From NCBI GenBank assembly GCA_964235495.1, contig CAXSAX010000005.1:35935-99934 (forward strand): 64,000 nucleotides of DNA, given 5' to 3'. This document shows positions 843-60,853 of this stretch, piece after piece. Within the stretch, counting starts at the first letter, position 1. The number at the start of each line of letters is the position of its first letter. Made by a program: the position numbers and the translations under genes. This DNA is from an uncultured Acetobacteraceae bacterium (GTDB taxonomy: Bacteria > Pseudomonadota > Alphaproteobacteria > Acetobacterales > Acetobacteraceae). The notes beneath the pieces are model-generated. The model did no database searches. It worked only from the letters and a program-made list of their open reading frames with translations, and had not been told where the DNA came from.

Positions 843-3800
843 CTACTCGGCCGCCACGGCCACGATGCGGGTCCGCCGTCCCCGCGCCAGCCGCTCCAGC
901 GCCAAGTACACCACCGGCGTGGTGTAGAGCGTCAGCGCCTGGCTCGCGATCAGCCCGCCCACGATCGCGACCCCCAGCGGCACGCGGTACTCCGATCCGG
1001 CGCCCCAGGCCAGCGCCAGCGGCAGCGCGCCCAGCAACGCGGCCAGCGTCGTCATGGTGATGGGGCGGAAGCGCTCCAGGCAGGCGGCGCGGATCGCCTG
1101 CTCCGGGGTCATGCCGCCCTCCCGCTCGGCTTCCAGCGCGAAATCCACCAGCATGATCGCGTTCTTCTTCACGATGCCGACCAGCAGCAGGATGCCGATG
1201 ACGCTCAGCACCGACAGCTCGCCGCCGGTGACCACGATCGCCAGCAGCGCGCCCAGGCCGGCGGAGGGGATGGTGGACAGGATGGTGAGCGGGTGCAGCA
1301 GGCTCTCGTACAGCACGCCGAGCACGATGTAGATCGTCAGCAGCGCAGCCCCGATCAGCGCCGGCTCGGAGGCGAGGGACTTCTTCAGGAACTGCGCGTT
1401 GCCGGCGAAATCCGTGTGCACGCCTTCCGGCATGCGCAGCTGCAGCGCCGTGTTCTCCACCAGCGCCGTGGCCTGGCCCAGCGACGTGCCGGGCAGCAGG
1501 TTGAAGCTGATGGAGCTGGAGGGGAACTGCCCCTGGTGCTCCACCGCCAGCGGCGCGGTGCCGCGCTCGAAACGCGCTACGGCGGAGAGCGGCACCTGCG
1601 TGGCGCCAGGGGCGCCGACATACACGGTTTGCAGCATCGAGGGGTCGGTTTGCAGCGCCGGGTCGGTCTCCAGCACCACCTTGTACTGGTTGCGGTCGGT
1701 GTAGATGGTGGAGATTTGCCGCTGGGCGAACGCGTTGTTCAGCGCGTTGTCGATCGCCGTGGTGGAGAGCTGCAGCCGGGCCGCGGCGTCCCGGTCGATC
1801 ACCACGTCGGATTGCGGGCCGGACTTGTCCTGGTCGCTGCTCACGTCCTCGATGCCAGAGACGTGCTGGAGCGCCGCTTCCAGCTTCTGGGTCCAGACGC
1901 GCAGCTCGGCCAGGTCCTGGTCCAGCAGCACGAACTGGAACTGGCTGCCGCCGCTGCGCCCGCCGCCGCGCAGGTCCTGCACGGAGGACAGGAAGGTCTG
2001 GATGTCCGCCATTGCCTGCAACTTGGGGCGCAGCCGGGCGATCACCGCCTCGCTGCTGATCCGGCGTTTGCTGATGGGCTTGAGCTGGATGGTCAGCTGG
2101 CCGCGGTTGAGAGATGAGAAGCCGTTGGCCACGCCCACGGTGGAGCCCACGCTCTGCACCGCCGGGTCAGCGAGGATGGCTTCGACCACGCGGCCCTGCT
2201 TGGCGGACATGGCGGCGAAGGAGGTGGACGGGTCGGCCTGGGTGTTGCCTTGCAGCAGCCCGGTGTCTTGCAGCGGCAGGAAGCCCTTGGGCACCTCCCA
2301 CCACAGCCCCACGGTGCCGACGGCGCAGCCGAGCGTGACCAGCAGCATCAGCCGCCGCCAGCGCAGCGCCGTGTCGAGCGAGCGGGCGTAGCCGCGCAGG
2401 GTAGCGGCCAGCGCCCGCTCCACCGCCGCGTCAAAGCGGGCCCACCAGCGCGGCGGTGCGATGCGCAGCCCGGTGATCTGGCCGCACATCATGGGCGTCA
2501 GCGTGAGGGAGACGGCGGCGGAGACGGCGATGGCCACGGTCAGCACCACCGCGAACTCGTGCAGCAGCCGGCCCGGCAGCCCGCCCATGAAGGTCAGCGG
2601 GATGAACACCGCGACCAGCGAGATGGAGATGGACAGCACGGTGAAGCCGATCTGCCGCGCGCCGCGGATGGCGGCCACGAGCGGCGGCTCGCCCATCTCG
2701 GCGTGGCGGGCGATGTTCTCGATCATCACGATGGCGTCGTCCACCACGAAGCCGACCGAGATGGTGAGCGCCATCAGCGAGAAGTTGTCCAAGGAGTAGC
2801 CGAGCTTCCACATGGCGGCCAGCGTGCCGGCGATGGACAGCGGCACCGTGACGGCGGCGGCCAGGGTGGGCACCAGGCGGCGCATGAACACCAGCACCAC
2901 CGCCAGCACCAGCACGATCGAGACCAGCAGCGTCTTCTCCACGTCGGCCACGCTGGCGCGGATGGTGCTGGTGCGGTCGGCGATGATCTTGACGTCGATG
3001 TCGGGCGGCATCCAGGCCAGCAGGTGCGGCAGCTCCGCCTTGATCCGGTCGGTGGTCTCGATGACGTTGGCCCCGGCGAGCCGGGTGATGCCGAGCAGGA
3101 TGGCGGGCGTCGTGCCGTCCCAGGCCGCGAGCCGGCTGTTGGCGACGCCGTCCACCACGCTTGCCACGTCTGACAGCCGCAGCGCGGAGCCGTTCTGCGA
3201 CTTGACCACCAGGCCGGCATAGTCGCTGGCCTGGCGCATCTGGCCGTTGACGGCGATGTCGCGGGCGCGGTCCGCCCCTTCGAAGCTGCCGGTGCTCTGC
3301 GTCACGTTGGCGTTGCGGATGGCGGTGAACACGTCCTGCCCGGACAGGCTGGCGGCCCGCAGCGCGCCGGGGTTCAGCCGCACCCGTACGGCCGGCTTCT
3401 CCGCGCCGTTGATCTGCACCTGGCTCACCCCGTCCAGCTGCGAGAGGCGCTGGGCGAGGATGGTGTCCGCCGCGTCGTACACCTGGCCCGGCGACAGCGT
3501 CTTGGAGGTGAGCGCCAGGGTCATGATCGGCGCGTCGGCCGGGTTGAACTTGCGGTAGTACGGCCGGATCGGCAGGTCGGAGGGCAGGTCGGAGGTGGCG
3601 GCGTTGATGGCCGTCTGCACGTCGTGCGCCGCCCCGTCGATGGAGCGGCCGATGTCGAAGATGCAGACAATGGCGGTGGAGCCGAGCGAGGAGGTGGAGG
3701 TGAGCTCGTTCATCCCGGGAATCTCGCCCAGGCGGCGCTCCAGCGGGGCGGCGATGGAGGTCGCCATCGTCTCCGGGTCCGCGCCGGGCCGGCCGGCGAA

Positions 3801-3941
3801 CACCACGATGGCGGGGAAGTCCACCATCGGCAGCGGCGCCACCGGCAGGAACTGGTAGGCGACCAGGCCGGCCAGCAGCAGGCCAAGCGACAGCAGGGCG
3901 GTGCCGACGGGGCGAAGGATGAAGGGGGTGGAGAAGTTCAA
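843..3941 (-). CDS. mdtC: RND efflux permease, MdtC-like
   Basis: 1032 aa, TTG start. Has GFVVDDAIVMIENI, GIVKKNAIMLVDFA and RFRPITMTT motifs of AcrB/MdtBC-family transporters. Confidence 0.9.
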   Translation of the reverse strand: MNFSTPFILRPVGTALLSLGLLLAGLVAYQFLPVAPLPMVDFPAIVVFAGRPGADPETMATSIAAPLERRLGEIPGMNELTSTSSLGSTAIVCIFDIGRSIDGAAHDVQTAINAATSDLPSDLPIRPYYRKFNPADAPIMTLALTSKTLSPGQVYDAADTILAQRLSQLDGVSQVQINGAEKPAVRVRLNPGALRAASLSGQDVFTAIRNANVTQSTGSFEGADRARDIAVNGQMRQASDYAGLVVKSQNGSALRLSDVASVVDGVANSRLAAWDGTTPAILLGITRLAGANVIETTDRIKAELPHLLAWMPPDIDVKIIADRTSTIRASVADVEKTLLVSIVLVLAVVLVFMRRLVPTLAAAVTVPLSIAGTLAAMWKLGYSLDNFSLMALTISVGFVVDDAIVMIENIARHAEMGEPPLVAAIRGARQIGFTVLSISISLVAVFIPLTFMGGLPGRLLHEFAVVLTVAIAVSAAVSLTLTPMMCGQITGLRIAPPRWWARFDAAVERALAATLRGYARSLDTALRWRRLMLLVTLGCAVGTVGLWWEVPKGFLPLQDTGLLQGNTQADPSTSFAAMSAKQGRVVEAILADPAVQSVGSTVGVANGFSSLNRGQLTIQLKPISKRRISSEAVIARLRPKLQAMADIQTFLSSVQDLRGGGRSGGSQFQFVLLDQDLAELRVWTQKLEAALQHVSGIEDVSSDQDKSGPQSDVVIDRDAAARLQLSTTAIDNALNNAFAQRQISTIYTDRNQYKVVLETDPALQTDPSMLQTVYVGAPGATQVPLSAVARFERGTAPLAVEHQGQFPSSSISFNLLPGTSLGQATALVENTALQLRMPEGVHTDFAGNAQFLKKSLASEPALIGAALLTIYIVLGVLYESLLHPLTILSTIPSAGLGALLAIVVTGGELSVLSVIGILLLVGIVKKNAIMLVDFALEAEREGGMTPEQAIRAACLERFRPITMTTLAALLGALPLALAWGAGSEYRVPLGVAIVGGLIASQALTLYTTPVVYLALERLARGRRTRIVAVAAE

Positions 3942-3956
3942 GGCGTGCAGGCCAGC

Positions 3957-4331
3957 TTACGGCGACTTGTCCGGAACCGGGGTGATAGCGGCAGGCGCCT
4001 GGCCCGGTTGCAGCAGGTAGATGGTGGGGCTGGCCTGCTTGGCCCTGATCTCGGCTTGCAGGGCGGCTAAGCTGGCTGTCTGTTGGGTGACCAGCACCTG
4101 CAACTGCCGAGTTTCCGTCTCCGACTCGCGGCCAAGATAGTTCGCCAAGCCAACCCCGGATCCGACCGCCAAAGCGATTGCAACGGCTGCGCTGACTCCG
4201 AACTTGAGGCTTTCCCAGCGCATGTCGCTGTTCAGCTTGGTCATGTTCAGGCGGGCATCGTCGATGTCCACGTCCAGCTTCTCCATCTCTTTGAGGTATT
4301 TGGCCTCTTCCTAGTCCTGCGTCAGCGGCAT
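3957..4331 (-). CDS. Small membrane protein (RWE + TM helix) with an in-frame TAG at codon 7; the 109-aa ORF 3957..4286 is intact; possible pseudogene
   Basis: ATG CCG CTG ACG CAG GAC TAG GAA GAG GCC AAA TAC CTC AAA GAG ATG GAG... continues in frame with the listed 109-aa ORF. GGAG lies 10 nt upstream of ATG 4331. Similar to the ORF at 59252..59449. Confidence 0.7.
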
Positions 4332-4351
4332 CCTAGCACGACTCCGTCGGC

Positions 4352-7300
4352 CTATTCCGCCGCCGCCGGGCGCAGCCCCGGTGCGAAGCGCAGGCGCAGC
4401 CGCTCGAACGTCACGTAGATCACCGGTGTCGTGTAGAGCGTCAGCAGCTGGCTCAGCAGTAGCCCGCCCACGATCGTCACCCCGAGCGGGAAGCGCAGCT
4501 CGGAGCCCGTGCCGTGCTCCAGCACCAATGGCAGCGCGCCCAGCAGGGCGGCGGCGGTGGTCATCATGATGGGGCGGAAGCGCAGGGCGCAGGCTTCCTC
4601 GATCGCGGCCTCGGGCGAGAGGCCGCGCTCGCGCTCCGCCTCCACCGCGAAATCGATCATCATGATGGCGTTCTTTTTCACGATGCCCATCAGCAGCACG
4701 ATGCCGACCAGCGCCACCAAGGACAGGTCCAGCCCGCACGCCATCAGCGCCAGCAACGCGCCGATGCCGGCCGAAGGCAGGGTGGACAGGATCGTCACCG
4801 GATGGATCGTGCTCTCGTACAGCACGCCCAGCACGATGTAGATCACCACCACGGCGGCCAGGATCAGCCAAGGCTCGGAACTGAGCGAGCGCTGGAACTC
4901 GGCGGCCTCGCCGGAGTAGCTGCCCGTCACCGTCTCCGGCAGGCCGAGCGCCTGCTCCGCATCCGCCACGTCCTTCACCGCGTCGCCCAGCGACGTGCCG
5001 GGCGCCAGGTCGAAGGACAGCGTGACGGAGGGGAACTGCTGCTCGTGGGTGATCGCCAGCGGCCCGACGCCCTGGCTGATGCGCGCCACCGCCGAGAGCG
5101 GGATCAGCGACTGCGCCGCCCCGCTCACGGTGGCGCCGGAGGTGGTGCTCTGCCCCTGCGCGGACAGCACGCCGGGCACCCGCAGGCGGAGCAGGGAAGC
5201 CGGGTCCGCCTGCCAGGCCGGGTCCGCCTCCAGCACCACGCGGTACTGGTTGGCCTGGCTGAAGATAGTGCTGATCTGGCGCTGGCCGAAGCTGTCGTAC
5301 AGCACGTCCTGGATCGTCTGCATCGACACGCCCAGGCGCTGTGCCGCCTCCCGGTCCACCGTGACGTGGGTGACCAGGCCCTCGTCCTGCTGGTCGGTGG
5401 CCACGTTGCGCAGGCCGGGCGCGCTTTGCAGTCGCGCGAGCAGGCGGGGCGCCCACGCGGCCAGCTCCGCCGCGTCGGTATCGACCAGGGTATACTGGTA
5501 TTGCGTGCGGCTGACCCTTGTTCCGATCTGGATGTCCTGCACCGGCTGGGTGAACACGGACAGGCCGGGGATGGCATCCGCCGCTCGTTGCAGCCGCGCC
5601 TGCACCGCCGCCACCCCGTCGCGCTGCGGGCGGGGCTTCAGCGCGATGGTCAGCCGGCCGGAGTTGGGCGTGGGGTTGATGGAGCCGGCGCCCACGAAGG
5701 AGGTCACGCTGGCCACCGCCGGGTCGCGCCGGGCGGCGTCGGCGAAGCGGGCTTGCAGCGTGCTCATGGCGGGGATCGAGATGGACTGGCCCGCCTGCGT
5801 CACCGCCACGATCACGCCCGTGTCCTGCGCCGGCAGGAAGCCCTTGGGCACGGCGATGTAGAGCAGCACCGTGCCGACCAGCGTGCCCGCCGCCACCAGC
5901 AGCACCAACCCCTGCGCCCGCAGCGCCCAGCCGAGCGTGCGCCGGTAGCCGGTCGCCATGCGGCGGAACCCGGCGTCGAACGTGCGGGCCAGCAGCGTGG
6001 GCCTGGCTGCGTGCAGCGGCCGCAGCAGCCTGCCGCACATCATGGGCGTGAGGGTGAGCGACACGGCCGCCGACACCACCACCGACACGGCGAGCGTCAC
6101 CGCGAACTCGTTGAACAACCGTCCCACCACGCCCGTCATGAACAGCAGCGGGATGAACACCGCCACCAGCGACACGGTGAGCGAGACGATGGTGAAGCCG
6201 ATCTGCTTGGCGCCGCGGTAGGCCGCCTGCAGCGGCGGCACGCCCTGCTCGATGAAGCGCACCACGTTCTCGATCATGACGATGGCGTCATCGACCACAA
6301 AGCCGGTCGAGACGGTCAGCGCCATCAGCGAGAGGTTGTCGAGCGCGTAGCCCAGCAGCGCCATGACACCGAAGGTGCCGATCAGGGACAACGGCAGGGC
6401 GATGCCCGGGATCACCGTGGCGCGCCAGGAGCCGAGGAACAGGTAAATCACCGCGATCACCAGGCCGATCGCCAGCAGCAGGGTGAACTGCACGTCCGCC
6501 ACCGAGGCGCGGATGGTCTCGGTCCGGTCCGTCACCACCGAGAGCGCCACGCCGGCGGGCAGGGCGCGCTCCAGCGCGGGCAGCGCCTCGCGGATGTCGG
6601 CCACGGTCTGCACGATGTTGGCGCCGGGCTGGCGCTGAATGTCCAGGATCACCGCCGGATGCCCGTCGAGCGCGGAGGCGACACGGGTGTTCTCGATGCT
6701 GGCCTCGACGCTGCCCACGTCGCGCAGGCGCAAGGGGGCGGCGTCCTTGTAGCTGATCACCAGCTGGCGGTAGGCCTCCGGGTCCAGCAGCTGGTCGTTG
6801 GTGGACAACCCGAAGGCCTGCGCCTTGCCGTCGAAGCCGCCCTTGGCGCCGTTCACGTTGGCGGCGGACACTGCGGTGCGCACGTCCTCCATCGACAGGT
6901 TGTAGGCGGCCAGCCGCGCCGGATCGATCCGCACCCGGATGGCCCGGCGCAGCCCGCCCTGCACCGTCACCTTGCCCACGCCGACGATCTGGCTGAGCTT
7001 CGGTTGCAGCAGCGTGTCCGCCAGGTCCGCCACCCCGTCCAGCGGCACGTTGTCGGAGGTGAGCGCCAGGGTGACGATGGCGGCGTCCGCCGGGTTCACC
7101 TTCGAGTACACCGGCGGGTAGGGCAGGGTGGCGGGCAGCGTGCCCTCGGCGGCATTGATCGCGGCCTGCACGTCCTGCGCTGCCCCGTCCATGGAGCGCG
7201 ACAAGTTGAACTGCAGCGTGATCTGGCTGGTGCCCTCGCTGCTGACGCTCTGCATGCTGGACAGCCCGGTGATCTGGCCGAACTGGCGCTCCAGGCTGGC

Positions 7301-7492
7301 GGTGACCAGGGTTGCCGTCACCTCCGGGCTGGCGCCGGGCAACTGGGTGCTGACCTCGATGGTGGGGAAGTCCACCTGCGGCAGCGCCGAGACGGGCAGC
7401 GCGCCGTAGCCCAGCAGCCCGGCCAGCAGCACCGCCACCGCCAGCAGCCCGGTCGCCACGGGACGGGCGATGAAGGGGGCGGAGATGTTCAT
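4352..7492 (-). CDS. mdtB: RND efflux permease, MdtB-like
   Basis: 1046 aa with the same RND motifs (GFVVDDAIVMIEN, KKNAIMMIDFA, RFRPIMMTT). First of the tandem permease pair. Confidence 0.9.
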   Translation of the reverse strand: MNISAPFIARPVATGLLAVAVLLAGLLGYGALPVSALPQVDFPTIEVSTQLPGASPEVTATLVTASLERQFGQITGLSSMQSVSSEGTSQITLQFNLSRSMDGAAQDVQAAINAAEGTLPATLPYPPVYSKVNPADAAIVTLALTSDNVPLDGVADLADTLLQPKLSQIVGVGKVTVQGGLRRAIRVRIDPARLAAYNLSMEDVRTAVSAANVNGAKGGFDGKAQAFGLSTNDQLLDPEAYRQLVISYKDAAPLRLRDVGSVEASIENTRVASALDGHPAVILDIQRQPGANIVQTVADIREALPALERALPAGVALSVVTDRTETIRASVADVQFTLLLAIGLVIAVIYLFLGSWRATVIPGIALPLSLIGTFGVMALLGYALDNLSLMALTVSTGFVVDDAIVMIENVVRFIEQGVPPLQAAYRGAKQIGFTIVSLTVSLVAVFIPLLFMTGVVGRLFNEFAVTLAVSVVVSAAVSLTLTPMMCGRLLRPLHAARPTLLARTFDAGFRRMATGYRRTLGWALRAQGLVLLVAAGTLVGTVLLYIAVPKGFLPAQDTGVIVAVTQAGQSISIPAMSTLQARFADAARRDPAVASVTSFVGAGSINPTPNSGRLTIALKPRPQRDGVAAVQARLQRAADAIPGLSVFTQPVQDIQIGTRVSRTQYQYTLVDTDAAELAAWAPRLLARLQSAPGLRNVATDQQDEGLVTHVTVDREAAQRLGVSMQTIQDVLYDSFGQRQISTIFSQANQYRVVLEADPAWQADPASLLRLRVPGVLSAQGQSTTSGATVSGAAQSLIPLSAVARISQGVGPLAITHEQQFPSVTLSFDLAPGTSLGDAVKDVADAEQALGLPETVTGSYSGEAAEFQRSLSSEPWLILAAVVVIYIVLGVLYESTIHPVTILSTLPSAGIGALLALMACGLDLSLVALVGIVLLMGIVKKNAIMMIDFAVEAERERGLSPEAAIEEACALRFRPIMMTTAAALLGALPLVLEHGTGSELRFPLGVTIVGGLLLSQLLTLYTTPVIYVTFERLRLRFAPGLRPAAAE

Positions 7493-7499
7493 GCCGGGT

Positions 7500-8702
7500 T
7501 CAGCCCGGCGTGCGGGCGCGGGCCGGCTGGGCCGCGGCCTCGGGCGGCACGGCGGCGTCCTGCACGTGCACCTTGGCGCCGTCGGTCAGGCGGGATGCGC
7601 CGTCCGTCACCACCCGGTCGCCCGGCCGCAGCCCGGCGGTGATGACGGAGGCGGCCTCGTCCTCGTGCCCCACCTGCACGGCGCGGCGCTCCACCGTATT
7701 GTCCGGCTTGAGCAGGTAGACGTAGGCCCCCAATGGGCCGCGCTGCACCCCGGTCGGCGGCAGGCTGACCACGTTGCGCTCAGTGTCCACCAGCAGCCGC
7801 ACGTTGACGAAGCCGCCGGGCCACAGGGCGAGCGAGGCGTTGGGGAAGGTCGCCTTGAGCTTGATGGTGCCGGTCGCCTGATCGACCGTGTTGTCCAGCA
7901 CCGCCACCTGGCCGCGGTCGAGCACGCTCTTTGCCTCGTTGGCGACGCCTTGCGGCAGCGCCAGCACCTCCGGCGCGCTGCCCTTCATGGCGGCGGCCAC
8001 CTCGCCCAGCGTTTGCTGCGGCAGGGTGAACACGACCGAGATCGGCTGCAGCTGGGTGATCACCACCAGCGGCGTCGTGTCCGCCGCGTGGACGATGTTG
8101 CCCTGGTCCACCTGGCGGATGCCGGTGCGGCCCTCCAGCGGACTGGTGATGGTGGTGTAGGACAGGTTGGTGCGCGCCGTGTCGATCTGCGCCTGGTCCT
8201 GCCGCACCAGCGCCTCGTCCTGCGCCACCGTCGCCTTCTGGGTGTCAGAGGTCTGGGCGGAGGTGTAGGCGGTGGCGGCGAGCTTCTGGTAGCGCACCAA
8301 GTCCACCTTGGCGTTGGCCAGGTTAGCCTCGTCCTGCGCCTTCTTGGCCGCCGCTTGGTCGAGCGCGGCCTGGTACGGCCGCGGGTCGATGCGGGCCAGC
8401 ACGTCCCCGGCGCGCACGTCCTGGCCCTCCTTGAAGGCGATTTGCAGCAGCGGGCCGTCGATCATCGCCTTGATGCTGACGGTGTTGAACGCCTGCACGG
8501 TGCCGAGCGCGTCCAAGAACACCGGCACGTCGCCCAGCTTGGCGGCGACGGCCAGCACCGGGACCGGATCGCCCTCGGCGCTGCCGGCCCGCGCCCGGTG
8601 GCGATCGTCCTTCGGCGCCGCGGTGCGCCCGAACTCGTACCAGCCGCCCGCGCCGGCAGCGGCGAGCACGGTCAGCAGCAGCAGGGACCGGCGGAGCGTC
8701 AT
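7500..8702 (-). CDS. mdtA: RND membrane fusion protein, MdtA-like
   Basis: N-terminal TM helix, lipoyl-like GTVQAFNTVSIK...FKEGQDVRAGDVLARIDPRPY, and DNTVDQATGTIKLKA. ATG at 8702 overlaps the upstream stop (ATGA). Confidence 0.9.
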   Translation of the reverse strand: MTLRRSLLLLTVLAAAGAGGWYEFGRTAAPKDDRHRARAGSAEGDPVPVLAVAAKLGDVPVFLDALGTVQAFNTVSIKAMIDGPLLQIAFKEGQDVRAGDVLARIDPRPYQAALDQAAAKKAQDEANLANAKVDLVRYQKLAATAYTSAQTSDTQKATVAQDEALVRQDQAQIDTARTNLSYTTITSPLEGRTGIRQVDQGNIVHAADTTPLVVITQLQPISVVFTLPQQTLGEVAAAMKGSAPEVLALPQGVANEAKSVLDRGQVAVLDNTVDQATGTIKLKATFPNASLALWPGGFVNVRLLVDTERNVVSLPPTGVQRGPLGAYVYLLKPDNTVERRAVQVGHEDEAASVITAGLRPGDRVVTDGASRLTDGAKVHVQDAAVPPEAAAQPARARTPG

Positions 8703-10363
8703 GTGTTTCCCGTGGCGCGGGGCAGCGTCCATCCGCCGCCCAGCGCCTTGTAGAGGTTGATCAGCGATTGGAAATACAACAGCCGCACCTGCGCCAGGGT
8801 ATCCTGGTCGTTGAACAGCGTGGTCTGCGTGTTGATCACGGTGGTGATGTCAACCGTGCCGGCGGCGAGCTGGGCGCGCGCGATCTCCTCCGCCTTCTGC
8901 GCCACCATCACGGCCTGGCGCTGCAACGCCTCTTGCTGCCCGGCGTAGCGCACCGCCACGAGGTAGGTGTCGGCGTCCTGGAAGGCCTGCAGCACCGCTT
9001 GGCGATAGTCGGCGACCAGCTCGGCGAAGCGGCCCTTGGCCTGGTTGAGGTTGCCTTGCTCCAGGCCGTTGTCGAAGATGGTCTGCGTGACGGACGCGGC
9101 GGCGCTGAACAGCAGGCTGCCGGGGCCGAGCAGGGTGGACAGCGCCAGGCTCTCGATGCCGCCCTGCGTGGTGAGCTGCACCGCCGGGAAGAAGGCGGCG
9201 CGGGCGGCGCGCACGTTGCCGTTCTGGCTGACGAGGTTGGCCTCGGCGTTGGCAACGTCCGGCCGCCGGGCCAGCAGCTCGGAGGGCAGGCCGCCGCTGA
9301 CGAGGGGGGTCGGCAGGTCGAACAGGGTGTTGGCGGCGACGGTGATCTGCTCCGGCGGCAGCCCGACCAAGGTGGAGAGCCCGATCACCTGCTGCTCCAG
9401 CTGGCTCTGGAAGCTCGGGATCAGCGCGGCCTCACCGGCCACCAGCGCCTCCTGCTGCGCCACGTCGAGCGCCGTTCCGGTGCCGAACTGCACCCGGGCC
9501 TGGAACACCTTGAGCGTCTCGCGCGCGATCCGGAGGTTGCTCTGCGCCACCGCCAGCCGGTCGGCCGCGCCCAGCGCCTGGAAGTAGGTGGTGGCCACGG
9601 AGGTGACGACCGTGAGCGCCACGGTCTCCTGGTCGAACCGGCTGGCCAGGGCTGCGGCTTGGGCGGCGTTGTAGGTCGCGCGGTTCTTGCCCCAGAAATC
9701 CGCCTCGTAGCTGATTGCGCCCTGCAAGCTGTACTGCCGGCTGTCCACGTAGCGGGTGCCGCCGAGGCCGCTGGCGCCGGTGACGACGGTGCTGCCGACG
9801 TTGTTGGTCGTGCTGGTGGTGGTGCCGGCGCCCGTGCTGGTGGTGGAGGTGACTCCAGCGCCGCCCGTGGTGATGCCTGACGCGCCGCCCACGCCCGTGG
9901 AGCCGATGCGGCTGTAGCTCGCGCTGCCGTTGGCGCTGATCGTGGGCAGCAGCGGCGACCCGGCGATCGACACCTGCGCGTCCGCCTGCACCACGCGGGC
10001 GGCGGCGGCGGCCAGGTTCTGGTTGTAGACCCGCGCGTCCGCCATCAGCCGGTCCAGCTCCGCCGAGCCGAAAGCGCGCCACCAGTCGGCCGCCGGCCAG
10101 GCCGCCCCCGCGCTTTCCACGGTGGCGCGGAACGCGGGCGGGATGGTCAACGCCGGGCGCGCGTAGTCCGGCCCGAGGTCGCACCCGGCCAAGGCGAGCA
10201 GGGTGGCGAGCGCGGCCAGGGGGGCGGCCAGGGAGGCGGACAGGGGTCGGGCATGCGGCAGGCGCAGCGTTCGAGTCCTCAATGCGGGCTTGGGTGAGCC
10301 CCTCCAGCGCCCCGCGGCGGCTCGCATGGCGTTGCAGGATTGCCACGGGAGGTGGGGCGTCAC
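8699..10363 (-). CDS. Outer-membrane efflux lipoprotein, NodT/OprM family (true start probably downstream of 10363)
   Basis: Lipobox LAGC followed by DLGPDYARP. Family motifs PSELLARRPDVANAE and LYKALGGGW. Confidence 0.88.
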   Translation of the reverse strand: MTPHLPWQSCNAMRAAAGRWRGSPKPALRTRTLRLPHARPLSASLAAPLAALATLLALAGCDLGPDYARPALTIPPAFRATVESAGAAWPAADWWRAFGSAELDRLMADARVYNQNLAAAAARVVQADAQVSIAGSPLLPTISANGSASYSRIGSTGVGGASGITTGGAGVTSTTSTGAGTTTSTTNNVGSTVVTGASGLGGTRYVDSRQYSLQGAISYEADFWGKNRATYNAAQAAALASRFDQETVALTVVTSVATTYFQALGAADRLAVAQSNLRIARETLKVFQARVQFGTGTALDVAQQEALVAGEAALIPSFQSQLEQQVIGLSTLVGLPPEQITVAANTLFDLPTPLVSGGLPSELLARRPDVANAEANLVSQNGNVRAARAAFFPAVQLTTQGGIESLALSTLLGPGSLLFSAAASVTQTIFDNGLEQGNLNQAKGRFAELVADYRQAVLQAFQDADTYLVAVRYAGQQEALQRQAVMVAQKAEEIARAQLAAGTVDITTVINTQTTLFNDQDTLAQVRLLYFQSLINLYKALGGGWTLPRATGNT

Positions 10364-26414: not shown

Positions 26415-26490
26415 GTCCCGTTCGTCTAGAGGCCTAGGACACGGCCCTTTCAAGGCTGTAACACGGGTTCGAATCCCGTACGGGGCACCA
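26415..26490 (+). tRNA. tRNA-Glu(TTC)
   Basis: 76-nt cloverleaf. Acceptor GTCCCGT/ACGGGGC, anticodon stem CGGCC/GGCTG with loop CTTTCAA, T-loop GGTTCGAATCC, encoded CCA. Confidence 0.97.
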
Positions 26491-37332: not shown

Positions 37333-37447
37333 CGCTGCTGCAAGGCCCCAAGCCCTCGCAGACCCACCGCTATTGTCACTGAAAGTAAAGGTGACTTGCT
37401 GCCGGGTTATCGCCGAACCAACTCCCGTTCGGAAAGAGGTGGAACCC

Positions 37448-37741
37448 ATGGCGAAGATCGCACGGCTTCTTGGTATGGCTGGCTTGGTCCTGGCTCTCGG
37501 CAGCGTGCCGGCGCTCGCGCAGCGCGGCGGCTACGGCGGATTTAGGGGCTATGGCGGTTTTTACGGTCGCGGCTTTGGCGGCTACGGCTTCCGTGGCTTT
37601 GGCTACGGTTACGGCCCGGGTTTCTATGGCCACGGTTTCTATGGCCGGGGCTTCTACGGCCCCCGCTTCGCCTATGGATTCCCCTATGGCGGCTTTCCTG
37701 GCGGAGCGCCGTTCTTCTACGGCTACCCACGCTACTACTGA
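37448..37741 (+). CDS. Secreted Gly/Tyr/Phe-rich low-complexity protein, 97 aa
   Basis: SD AAGAGG. Signal peptide ends ALA-Q. Mature part is made of YGxGF-like repeats. Confidence 0.7.
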   Translation: MAKIARLLGMAGLVLALGSVPALAQRGGYGGFRGYGGFYGRGFGGYGFRGFGYGYGPGFYGHGFYGRGFYGPRFAYGFPYGGFPGGAPFFYGYPRYY

Positions 37742-37818
37742 CCCCCGCGCCACCACCGACCGCAGTGACGCGCTGCGCCCTCCGGTATAGCTTCGCCCGG
37801 CCATAACAGGAGGCGGCG

Positions 37819-58454: not shown

Positions 58455-59246
58455 ATGTCCTCCGCCGCCGGGAAGCCCGAAGACACCATCAACGACACGC
58501 CTATGCCGCTCATGGCGCACCTGCTGGAGCTGCGCCGCCGGCTGATGTGGGCCGGGCTGTCGTTCTTCGTCTGCTTCGCGGTGTGCTACCATTTCTCGAC
58601 GCAGATCTACTCGTTCCTGGCGCAGCCGCTGGCCGACATCCTGCAATCCCGCTCCGGCCAGGACCGCCGGCTGATCTACACGGCGCTGTACGAGGCGTTC
58701 TTCACCTACCTGAAGGTGGCGCTGTTCGGCGGTGCGTTCCTGGCATTCCCGGTGATCGCGACGCAGCTCTACATGTTCGTGGCGCCGGGCCTGTACCGCA
58801 GCGAGAAGCGCGCCTTTCTGCCGTTCCTGATTGCGACGCCCGTGCTGTTCGTCATGGGCGCGGCGCTGGCGTATTATTTCGTGTTTCCCGTGGCCTGGCG
58901 CTTCTTTCTCTCGTTCGAGACGCCGAACGGCGCGGGCGGCCTGCCGATCGAGCTGCAAGCCAAGGTGGGCGAATACCTCGACCTGGTGATGAAGCTGATC
59001 TTCGCCTTCGGCATCGCCTTCCAGCTGCCGGTGCTGCTGACGCTGCTGGCCAAGGTCGGCATCGTGACGCAGGCCGGGCTGCGCAAGATGCGGCGTTACG
59101 CCTATGTCGGCATGTTCGTGGTCGCTGCGATCCTGACGCCGCCCGACGTGATCACCCAGTGCGGCTTGGCGCTGCCGCTGATCGCGCTCTACGAGGTCTC
59201 GATCATCGCGGCCGGGCTGGTGGCGAAGAAGCCGGTGGAGGCGTGA
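58455..59246 (+). CDS. tatC: Twin-arginine translocase subunit C
   Basis: MPLMAHLLELRRRL, FVAPGLYRSEK, FQLPV, ILTPPD. Confidence 0.96.
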   Translation: MSSAAGKPEDTINDTPMPLMAHLLELRRRLMWAGLSFFVCFAVCYHFSTQIYSFLAQPLADILQSRSGQDRRLIYTALYEAFFTYLKVALFGGAFLAFPVIATQLYMFVAPGLYRSEKRAFLPFLIATPVLFVMGAALAYYFVFPVAWRFFLSFETPNGAGGLPIELQAKVGEYLDLVMKLIFAFGIAFQLPVLLTLLAKVGIVTQAGLRKMRRYAYVGMFVVAAILTPPDVITQCGLALPLIALYEVSIIAAGLVAKKPVEA

Positions 59247-59251
59247 CGGGC

Positions 59252-59449
59252 TTAGTGCCCGATCGCGCGGAGGATGAGCGTGGCCACGCCGATGAGCGCG
59301 GCCATGACACCGGCCCCAGCACCGGCCGCAACAGCCATGGCTTTCCATGGCTCCCACCGAACTTGGGTTTCGAAGTGTCTGATCTGAATGGGCATAAGCT
59401 CCATCCTCATCTCGTGCTCTAAGAGTTCCTGGTCGGCACTCAGCGGCAT
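59252..59449 (-). CDS. Small membrane protein, 65 aa (RWE + TM helix family)
   Basis: MPLSADQELLEHEMRMELMPIQIRHFETQVRWEPWK followed by a ~25-aa hydrophobic stretch. Similar to 3957..4331. Confidence 0.7.
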   Translation of the reverse strand: MPLSADQELLEHEMRMELMPIQIRHFETQVRWEPWKAMAVAAGAGAGVMAALIGVATLILRAIGH

Positions 59450-59549
59450 GGTCTAAGATAACACATTGCCCACTAAGCTGCATTAGCGCTCGCCTTGACC
59501 AGGTGGTGCCGCCGGTTCAAACGCCTGACGCCGGTGCTGTTGCAACCCT

Positions 59550-59590: not shown

Positions 59591-60853
59591 ATGCAAGACA
59601 TCCGAGCTGTTCGCGACGATATCGATGCTTTTCGCGCGGCGATGAACCGGCGCTCAATCAGCATTGACGTTGAGGAAATAAGTCGTACTGACGCGAATCT
59701 GAGGCGAACCGTCACTGAGCTGGGCGGGTTGCAGGCTGAACGAAACGCTCATTCGAAGCTTGTCGGCGAGCAGCGCCGCAAGGGCCATGACACGCTGGCG
59801 CTTGAGGCAGGGGCAGTGGGCATCCGCGACCGGATATTGAGCTTGCAAGCCGCGGAACAGGGCTTCAGCGTGCATCTACAAAGCCTTTTAGCCAGCCTCC
59901 CCAACATCCTCGACCCCGACGTGCCGGACGGCGCCGACGAGTCCGCCAACCTCGTCGTCAAGCAGCACGGCGAGCCGGCCGCCCTCACTGCCGCCCGCCA
60001 GCACTTCGAGCTCGGCGAGGCCCTCGGCCTGATGGACTTCGCCGCCGCCGCCAAGATCGCCGGCTCCCGTTTCACCGTGCTGCGCGGCGGCCTCGCCCGC
60101 ATGGAGCGCGCCCTCGGCCAGTGGATGCTCGACCTGCACACGGCCGAGCACGGCTACGAGGAGGTCGCCGTCCCGCTGCTGGTGAACGAGGCCACGGCCT
60201 ACGGCTCCAACCAGCTGCCCAAGTTCGCCGAGGACATGTTCCAGACCAAAGACGGCCGTTGGCTCATCCCCACCGCCGAGGTGCCGCTCACCAACCTGGC
60301 CGCCGGCGAGATCATCCCCGAGGCCCGCCTGCCGCTGCGCATGGCCGCGCTCACCGACTGCTTCCGCTCGGAGGCCGGGTCGGCCGGGCGGGACACCCGG
60401 GGGATGCTGCGCCAGCACCAGTTCCGCAAGGTCGAGCTGGTCTCCATCACCCGACCGGGAGACAGCGACGCCGAGCACGAGCGCATGACGCGCTGCGCCG
60501 AGACGGTGCTGGAGCGGCTGGGCATCCCGTACCGCCGGATGCTGCTCTGCGCCGGGGACACCGGGTTCGGCGCCGCCAAGACCTTCGACCTGGAGGTCTG
60601 GCTGCCGGGGCAGGGGGCCTGGCGGGAGATCAGCTCCTGCTCCAACACCCGCGCCTTCCAGGCCCGCCGCATGAACGCGCGCTGGCGCCCGGCGGAGGGC
60701 AAGCCCGAGTTTGTCCACACCCTCAACGGCTCCGGCGTCGCGGTCGGCCGGGCGCTCATCGCGGTGATGGAAACCTGCCAGCAGCCGGACGGCTCAATCA
60801 CCGTGCCGGACGTGCTGCGCCCCTACATGGCCGGGCAGGAGCGCATCGGCTGA
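59591..60853 (+). CDS. serS: Serine--tRNA ligase
   Basis: [58 protein letters not shown]. Confidence 0.98.

Follow-up and report, generated by a model that had tools for sequence, protein, structure and literature searches.

What is a small membrane-protein gene doing between the two permease genes of an efflux operon, and how did it come to be there? The question is raised by a 64,000-nt stretch of DNA from an uncultured Acetobacteraceae bacterium (GenBank contig CAXSAX010000005.1, positions 35,935 to 99,934), here called the window, in which mdtB- and mdtC-like genes for resistance-nodulation-division (RND) permeases are separated by a spacer holding a short reading frame, copy 1, whose product resembles that of a second small gene, copy 2, lying 55 kb away. 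An earlier examination of the letters alone (the sequence-only reading) had proposed that the two genes represent a dispersed, multi-copy family of single-gene cassettes. The answer that we favour, and hold to be rather probable, is that they belong to an undescribed family of small inner-membrane proteins found on both mobile elements and chromosomes, that copy 1 was inserted between the permease genes once and has since been truncated in this strain, and that the family plays an accessory role connected with mobile elements. The argument depends on the following features; copies 1 and 2 were counted within the window only.

3957-4331, minus strand: copy 1, a small bitopic membrane-protein gene of 124 codons plus stop, of the long 'type B' form (from its translation)
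4352-7492, minus strand: mdtB-like RND permease, 1046 aa (PF00873, E 0; homologues named MdtB or efflux RND permease)
843-3941, minus strand: mdtC-like RND permease, 1032 aa, TTG start (PF00873, E 1e-297)
4332-4351, minus strand: mdtB-copy 1 spacer, 20 nt, from the mdtB stop TAG (4352-4354) to ATG 4331
3942-3956, minus strand: copy 1-mdtC spacer, 15 nt, from TAA to the mdtC TTG start
4311-4313, minus strand: in-frame TAG at codon 7 of copy 1, CAG (Gln) in other carrier lineages
3957-4286, minus strand: longest uninterrupted open reading frame (ORF) past that stop, 109 aa from the ATG at codon 16 (from its translation)
4134-4202, minus strand: predicted transmembrane helix of copy 1, FGVSAAVAIALAVGSGVGLANYL, residues 44-66, invariant among six relatives
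4038-4127, minus strand: helical coiled-coil-like segment of copy 1, residues 69-98, C-terminal of the membrane helix
3993-4025, minus strand: tail motif TIYLLQPGQAP of copy 1, followed by a proline-rich end, common to other long members
59252-59449, minus strand: copy 2, a 65-aa tail-anchored member of the short 'type A' form (RWEPWK plus glycine-zipper helix; from its translation)
59273-59359, minus strand: RWEPWK motif (residues 31-36) and predicted transmembrane helix AMAVAAGAGAGVMAALIGVATLI (residues 37-59) of copy 2 (40 sequences aligned)

The spacer between the permease genes (3942-4351) measures 410 bp and has a GC content of 62.4%, to be compared with 70.8% and 70.3% in the pump genes, so that the earlier hand count of about 410 bp and 62%, between flanks of about 70%, was accurate. 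Both permeases flanking copy 1 are full-length ACR_tran proteins, mdtB being the upstream and mdtC the downstream neighbour. Read from ATG 4331 to TAA 3957-3959, copy 1 begins with MPLTQD, meets the in-frame stop and continues as EEAKYLKEMEKLDV...RWESLK into a hydrophobic helix and a helical tail, just as had been described. After the stop the frame runs through EEAKYLKEMEKLDVDIDDARLNMTKLNSDMRWESLK into the hydrophobic helix, the helical segment and, at the end, a tail rich in proline. Directly before the predicted transmembrane helix stands the family motif RWESLK (residues 38-43). Intact relatives of copy 1 (P0001, P0002 and P0005) are 129-141 aa long, and the segment at residues 69-98 varies in length from lineage to lineage, owing to indels of 4 and 14 codons; the tail motif has counterparts in P0283 (VIYIVPGQAP) and P0247 (IIYLVPGQAP). 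An AlphaFold2 model, made on the intact relative P0001 and not on the window protein, predicts helices at 5-68 and 71-98, with the membrane segment inside the former, and a disordered tail (mean predicted local distance difference test score, pLDDT, 82).

The window proteins are only about 28% identical, and their relationship was assessed through Smith-Waterman alignment against 5000 shuffles, carried out on the whole proteins, on the soluble N-terminal parts and on the transmembrane parts separately. The whole proteins score 66, against 24.5 +/- 4.4 for shuffled sequences, and the soluble N-terminal parts alone 49, against 20.3 +/- 3.8, none of the 5000 shuffles reaching the true value in either case; the transmembrane parts alone yield no significant alignment in the same test. 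BLASTP gives an E value of 6e-4, tblastn of copy 1 over the whole window returns copy 2 as its best off-target match, and hhalign comparison of the two homologue sets gives a probability of 96% (E 1e-9). A hidden Markov model (HMM) built from copy-2 homologues only recovers the intact copy-1 relatives from six-frame ORFs at E 1e-5. Distant copy-2 homologues carry a seven-residue insertion, ADIENKR, corresponding to the extra residues of copy 1, and such intermediates bridge the gap between the two. By these comparisons the copies are diverged paralogues whose relationship is real but distant; a chance ORF or chance similarity is ruled out by the shuffle tests, the profile comparisons and the ratios of non-synonymous to synonymous substitution (dN/dS) given below. 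The sequence-only reading had thus quoted the ORF at 59252-59449 correctly and rightly related it to copy 1. It had also pointed to matching DNA starts: 18 of the first 24 nt of the genes do agree, a match that arises because the MPL..DQE codons are conserved and that stops at the genes themselves, the upstream DNA being unconserved and no flank shared. An HMM search of the window found no copies of the family beyond these two, and a weak third candidate at 37395-37787 (HMM E 0.04) was discarded as an alanine-rich stretch of the wrong character.

When the joint copy-1/copy-2 profile was run against 1.84 billion representatives (E <= 1e-3), it gathered 134 clusters at 50% identity, with members of 34-134 aa. 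These share an amphipathic N-terminal helix of some 35 residues, predicted to be cytoplasmic (MPLTxxQExxEHELRVxQM, often with NIEKMRxDM), and a junction motif RWE(P/S/T)(W/R)K, or more fully (NIEKMR)xDxRWE(P/S/T)(W/R)K, followed by one Gly/Ala-rich membrane helix. Members of type A, like copy 2, stop a few residues past the helix and would be tail-anchored; those of type B extend into a putative periplasmic proline-rich tail with a short beta-like motif (IIYLVPGQAP, PPGTVITIPP or IIFQPGSIQVLP). Copy 1 itself is of type B and has a coiled-coil segment in addition; its closest outgroups are P0195 (E 9e-19), P0174 and P0283, the last of which has the same tail, VIYIVPGQAPPAITP. The hosts, sampled from lichen, moss, peat and soil, are Acetobacteraceae-like bacteria. 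Only six close homologues of copy 1, counting the window's own product, turned up in 5.8 billion clusters, and the gene is present in two of 185,579 species-representative genomes, both from uncultured Acetobacteraceae; for copy 2, 40 homologues were found.

No curated family in Pfam, NCBIfam, PHROGs or PADLOC matches above threshold, and the only recurring signals are weak, sub-threshold ones, to DUF883_C for type A and to XhlA for type B. The suggestion of a DUF1640/CCDC90-like protein found no support, PF07798 matching neither window protein, nor any of 72 family members, at E <= 1. A PDB sequence search and Foldseek against BFVD and the PDB returned no relative, the predicted structures of P0001 and copy 2 consisting of long helices only, and such plain-helix models make the fold search uninformative. 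Searches of a plasmid database with tblastn gave no match to the protein of copy 1 or copy 2, and a literature search on the sequence motifs returned no papers. The proteins therefore make up what these searches present as an undescribed family of predicted small inner-membrane proteins, bitopic or tail-anchored, and the earlier belief in a real, unnamed small-membrane-protein family occupying many genomic contexts (134 clusters; about 20 contexts) is upheld.

The history of copy 1 can be read from relatives with and without it, DNA having been compared for five carrier lineages and MdtB identity for four. In all carrier lineages with recovered DNA the gene occupies the same place between mdtB and mdtC, and the four MdtB proteins compared are at least 96% identical. 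Further out, the junction is empty: L012 (MdtB 93.5%) has a 68-bp spacer containing a hairpin of repetitive extragenic palindromic (REP) type, followed by the same downstream genes; L011 (MdtB 89%) has 112 bp of REP-like sequence; and Acidisphaera sp. L21 (L013, MdtB 87%) has a mere 11 bp. Contigs of three further lichen runs likewise link mdtB to mdtC without copy 1; the sequencing runs, whose type is unconfirmed as RNA, were used through their contigs for presence or absence and for a codon variant only. Since the carriers form a tight clade while sister and distant relatives are empty, this distribution indicates a single gain of copy 1, dating to the ancestor of a narrow lichen-associated Acetobacteraceae clade, with vertical inheritance thereafter. 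Among carriers its dN/dS is 0.19-0.40, against 0.07-0.13 for mdtB, values that point to inheritance under moderate purifying selection and hence to a functional coding sequence in the past. The sequence-only reading was accordingly right to call copy 1 an insertion. Its picture of dispersed multi-copy insertions agrees with the many contexts of the family and fails for the window, which has only two copies, one gained a single time and the other syntenic at its locus; in the carriers copy 1 is a stable member of the operon at one position, while the sisters lack it.

Window positions 3880-4420, like L001, L002 and L016, show neither terminal repeats, inverted or direct, nor a target duplication or attC-like site; alignment of filled and empty junctions revealed no target-site duplication, and the family copies have no conserved non-coding flank in common. 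The examined neighbourhoods of L002 and L012 contain no recombinase or transposase near the site, in keeping with the earlier remark that no transposase or integrase lies near copy 1. Gene order in L002 runs outer-membrane efflux protein (OEP)-membrane-fusion protein (MFP)-mdtB-X-mdtC-beta-lactamase-NIPSNAP-histidine kinase (HK), where X is copy 1, and that in L012 is the same without X and with an extra DUF3455 gene. The window counterpart of the MFP gene is:

7500-8732, minus strand: membrane-fusion protein gene of the same operon (HlyD_D23 and related matches; synteny in L001, L002 and L012)

REP-like hairpins (CTCCCTCTCCC...GGGAGAGGG) were observed in the mdtB-mdtC spacer of relatives, at 2900-2945 and 3380-3540 in L007, that is, on both sides of the copy-1 gene, and at the empty sites of L011 (8145-8255) and L012 (8143-8185); the spacer would therefore be a hotspot for small insertions. 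As a vehicle for copy 1 the hairpins were set aside, being present in those three loci and nowhere in the window. The only RNA gene detected in the window (ARAGORN, Rfam) is a single tRNA-Glu (TTC) at 26415-26490.

Copy 1 is closely fitted into its operon. Scans around copies 1 and 2 found no promoter or terminator, and because of this we infer that copy 1 is co-transcribed with the pump genes. The core CGTGCTAGG upstream of its ATG is kept among carriers. At the other end, the mdtC start of the carriers (TTG or GTG) is without a Shine-Dalgarno-like motif, whereas the empty-site relative L012 has GGAGAAGG (8170-8186) ahead of its mdtC GTG start. Given the 15-nt spacer and the lack of such a motif, translation of mdtC is probably coupled to that of the small ORF, and may have become dependent on it after the insertion.

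In the window strain a change of CAG to TAG at codon 7 truncates copy 1. The sequence-only reading had recorded this stop and left out what follows from it, namely that the copy here is truncated or defunct. Sequencing error is ruled out by the presence of the same stop in independent assemblies: L002 and L003, two further assemblies of a near-identical strain, also have TAG, while the more distant carriers L001/L008, L007 and L016 have CAG, as does lichen run X3 (A>G at 4313 on the plus strand). Beyond the ATG at codon 16, an alternative GTG at 4271 (codon 21, with GGAG about 9 nt upstream) yields the 104-aa product called in the database, P0003; a product from either codon would keep the RWE motif, the membrane helix and the tail, which include all the invariant residues. 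We infer that the strain makes no protein from this gene, or else one that lacks the N-terminus and starts at Met16 or Val21. Comparable lesions are seen elsewhere in the family. L016 has independently lost its start codon (ATG to ACG, 2941-2943) with the remainder of the ORF intact, in L006, which has a relative of copy 2, 7 bp are inserted after codon 2 (4940-4953), and for seven copy-2 homologues the database places the start at an internal Met19. That N-terminal lesions recur ahead of an open remainder may mean that the N-terminus can be dispensed with or that a short isoform exists; for the window's copy the possible readings are early decay, a non-essential N-terminus and isoforms made from two starts.

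Copy 2 lies between genes of quite another kind:

58455-59246, plus strand: tatC, convergent neighbour of copy 2 (PF00902, E 2e-73)
59591-60853, plus strand: serS, divergent neighbour of copy 2 (Seryl_tRNA_N plus tRNA-synt_2b)

The same locus is found in L004 and L006, with the small gene between tatC and serS and on the strand opposite to both. Compared with the window, TatC is 86% and 77% identical in these two loci, and the small protein 72% and 66%. Judged by this synteny, copy 2 has kept its site while TatC diverged to 77-86% identity, and it does not look like a recent arrival. Eleven residues, E33, P34, W35, K36, A37, M38, A39, A41, A44, G45 and A51, are invariant across 40 sequences, and AlphaFold2 predicts helices at 5-30 and 33-62 (mean pLDDT 88.5). 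Several family genes, copy 2 among them, lack a Shine-Dalgarno motif and show instead a -10-like hexamer a few bases before the start (TATCTT, TAGGAT, TATAGA, TATGCT). These sites were located by eye only, at 59450-59470 of the window and in L017 (5975-6000), L019 (4985-5000) and L006 (4925-4939), and could mean leaderless mRNAs.

Some 20 informative contexts of other family members were gathered by metagenome and viral-contig scans plus look-ups. In prophages the neighbours include capsid, portal and HNH genes, and also those for tail sheath, endolysin, terminase large subunit and an anti-restriction protein. The closest outgroup of copy 1 lies on a plasmid-like contig that also encodes RepA_C and a CbiA/ParA-type ATPase, and further mobile contexts are marked by ArdC with a tyrosine integrase, by GH108 lysozyme and by a RecE-like exonuclease. 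Chromosomal contexts comprise YidB and aminotransferase genes, and Band_7, CorC and DUF4349 neighbours. To judge from these neighbourhoods, members of the family are often cargo of prophages and other mobile elements, and they occur also as single genes at unrelated chromosomal sites. The mobile cassette of the sequence-only reading is borne out to the extent of these prophage, plasmid-like and ArdC/integrase contexts; the repeats, target duplication and shared flanks that would mark a cassette are missing.

Two arrangements recur. At no fewer than seven loci (L023, L025, L026, L027, L028, L040 and L052) two or three paralogues follow one another in tandem sets, their ends overlapping or abutting, for example at 441-1211 in L025, 26-1004 in L040, 4905-5409 in L028 and 191-533 in L052; a third subtype, in which FWETPR replaces RWEPWK, is seen in such sets. 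Their diverged paralogues suggest hetero-oligomeric complexes of small proteins. In four loci a ribbon-helix-helix (RHH) gene of CopG type, a 'transcriptional repressor' in PHROG terms, lies directly upstream (L025, 376-543; L027, 133-309; L035, 244-405; L050, 1755-1928). The RHH gene of L050 is inside a prophage and adjoins tail genes, and the layout of RHH gene plus family member resembles a toxin-antitoxin or moron module. On the plasmid-like contig L017, the gene after the family member (6254-6436) encodes another 60-aa helix-plus-membrane-anchor protein (MTDVDEFTRELALIQRDLERDKRR...), which falls outside the family HMM.

We favour an accessory role on the strength of the tandem paralogues and of the neighbourhoods, those in prophages, on plasmids and next to RHH genes. 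The proteins would act as membrane-embedded oligomerising helices, probably associating through the glycine-rich helix, and the genes would be mobile-element accessory genes, exclusion-, toxin- or lysis-regulator-like, in the course of becoming domesticated and not dedicated pump subunits. Four observations weigh against this answer. Ordinary chromosomal neighbourhoods make up about half of the informative contexts, so that the link to mobile elements is an enrichment and not a rule; pattern scans found only five of 2.9 million IMG/VR contigs; and the purifying selection seen in carriers also fits a pump-related role. Lastly, low GC looks like a family trait and gives no sign of recent transfer, because the long-resident copy 2 is equally low: GC at third codon positions (GC3) is 0.74 in copy 2 and 0.80 in copy 1, against 0.89-0.96 in their neighbours. 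A more specific version, to which we give little credence, would have the proteins be unrecognised effectors from RHH-controlled prophage or plasmid modules, with superinfection-exclusion, abortive-infection or toxin-like activity and maybe with two-start isoforms, which escaped to the chromosome without a recombinase and were then domesticated (tatC/serS) or left to decay (mdtB/mdtC). Decay alone is the theme of a possible, if doubtful, alternative in which copy 1 in the window is a pseudogene whose ORF stays open only as mdtC translation is coupled to ribosomes finishing it. The nonsense codon is fixed in the window's sublineage, where dN/dS since the TAG arose is 0.94, the carriers' mdtC is without a Shine-Dalgarno motif, and L016 has lost its start codon independently, all as decay would have it. 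That ratio comes from three non-synonymous changes and one synonymous, too few to decide the matter or to test for relaxed selection; the in-frame ATG and GTG could still give a product with RWE motif, membrane helix and tail, and since lesions of this kind recur in the family with the remainder intact, copy-2 relatives included, the short form may function.

The position of copy 1 invites the thought that it is a dedicated AcrZ-like accessory subunit of the MdtBC pump, binding the permease and tuning its activity. It lies between the permease genes with spacers of only 20 and 15 nt and no promoter or terminator found of its own, it has been retained under purifying selection in all carrier lineages, and it is modelled as a single-pass membrane protein. 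We nevertheless regard this as improbable, given that an RND operon is only one of about 20 family contexts, that sister lineages with 87-94% identical pumps do without copy 1, that two carrier lineages have N-terminal lesions, and that no Pfam family, AcrZ included, matches at E <= 1. Nor do we think it likely, though we give it slightly more weight, that the family, and copy 2 in particular, consists of miniature relatives of DUF883 (YqjD/ElaB/YgaM) with a conserved N-terminus that would serve under stress to tether ribosomes to the membrane or to inactivate them there. For the DUF883 family a preprint describes a Pro that breaks the helix and has Trp after it, a membrane helix at the C-terminus rich in glycine, and Arg-Arg or Arg-Lys as the last residues (10.1101/2024.08.16.608256). 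Copy 2 has E33-P34-W35, a helix break at residues 31-32 and AAGAGAG, and so offers the Pro-Trp pair and helix break ahead of a glycine-rich C-terminal helix; it ends in ...RAIGH, without the C-terminal Arg-Arg. Weak matches to PF19029 (DUF883_C) occur in 38 of 40 copy-2 homologues (best E 7.7e-4), a DUF883-type protein, P0296, is the last match of the family profile (E 1e-3), and the small membrane-protein genes yqjE and yqjK, neighbours of DUF883 genes, recall the tandem sets of the family. All these scores are nevertheless under the Pfam gathering score of 27 bits, copy 2 reaching 12.9 (E 0.088), the match is limited to a low-complexity membrane segment, and no N-terminal domain match was obtained at E <= 1 among the 72 members scanned. 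Copy 1, with RWESLKF and a 58-residue C-terminal extension, and other type B members have no Pro-Trp pair, possess predicted periplasmic tails and do not match DUF883_C, and the phage and plasmid contexts would be left unexplained. Finally, an autonomous or hitch-hiking single-gene cassette, associated with integrons, miniature inverted-repeat transposable elements (MITEs) or REPs and landing repeatedly in spacers, would account for the many unrelated spacers in which the family is found, for close lineages with either a filled or an empty mdtB-mdtC site, and for the hairpins that bracket the gene in L007 and have similar counterparts at the empty sites of L011 and L012. Such a cassette seems to us highly improbable, in view of the missing terminal repeats, target duplication and attC-like sites in the window, L001, L002 and L016, the want of any common non-coding flank, the monophyly of the carriers, which indicates one event, the stability of copy 2 at its site across the sampled genomes, and the absence of REP-like hairpins anywhere in the window.

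The family is new, though its general kind is familiar; for now it stands as a well-delimited hypothetical family and does not amount to a new mechanism. It adds an unannotated and fairly diverse group of small membrane proteins, one that moves between prophages, plasmid-like elements and chromosomes, to the poorly charted small proteome of the Alphaproteobacteria and, if its members turn out to be toxins, exclusion factors or ribosome tethers like ElaB, would merit a Pfam entry and experimental work. The mdtB-mdtC case is clean and datable, filled and empty sites being found in lineages whose pump proteins are 93-96% identical, and it presents one small gene that was placed inside a tightly coupled operon, where no mobility machinery is visible, and then retained, possibly as downstream translation came to depend on it.

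Four known systems invite comparison. AcrZ (49 aa, accessory to AcrB) is, like copy 1, a small single-pass inner-membrane protein, the RND association of copy 1 being by operon position only; the AcrZ gene, for its part, lies away from acrAB. The family as a whole differs in having no Pfam AcrZ match at E <= 1 and no overall link to RND pumps. XhlA (PF10779), the membrane-associated helper of the lysis cassette in PBSX-type prophages of Bacillus, is phage-borne, has some 70-90 aa and resembles the family in its coiled-coil helix at the N-terminus, followed by a conserved Trp/Lys junction and one membrane helix. The match is weak, being seen in five of 32 type B members (best E 0.011), with P0195 scoring 12.8 bits against a gathering score of 34.7. 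XhlA belongs to Firmicute lysis cassettes, beside holin and amidase, whereas in L029 and L052 the endolysin is more than 2 kb off and on the other strand, and the window copies have no phage neighbours. Prophage morons, superinfection-exclusion proteins and the membrane toxins of RHH-regulated toxin-antitoxin systems are also small, occupy accessory positions and sometimes lie just downstream of an RHH gene; the family is set apart from them by the lack of PADLOC or PHROG homology of known function, by its many chromosomal copies and by the fixed position of copy 2. Proteins of the DUF883 group are likewise small and nearly all-helical with a cytoplasmic N-terminus, occur as several paralogues per genome and have small membrane-protein genes adjacent, while those described here are some 35 residues shorter and many of them reside on prophages or plasmids.

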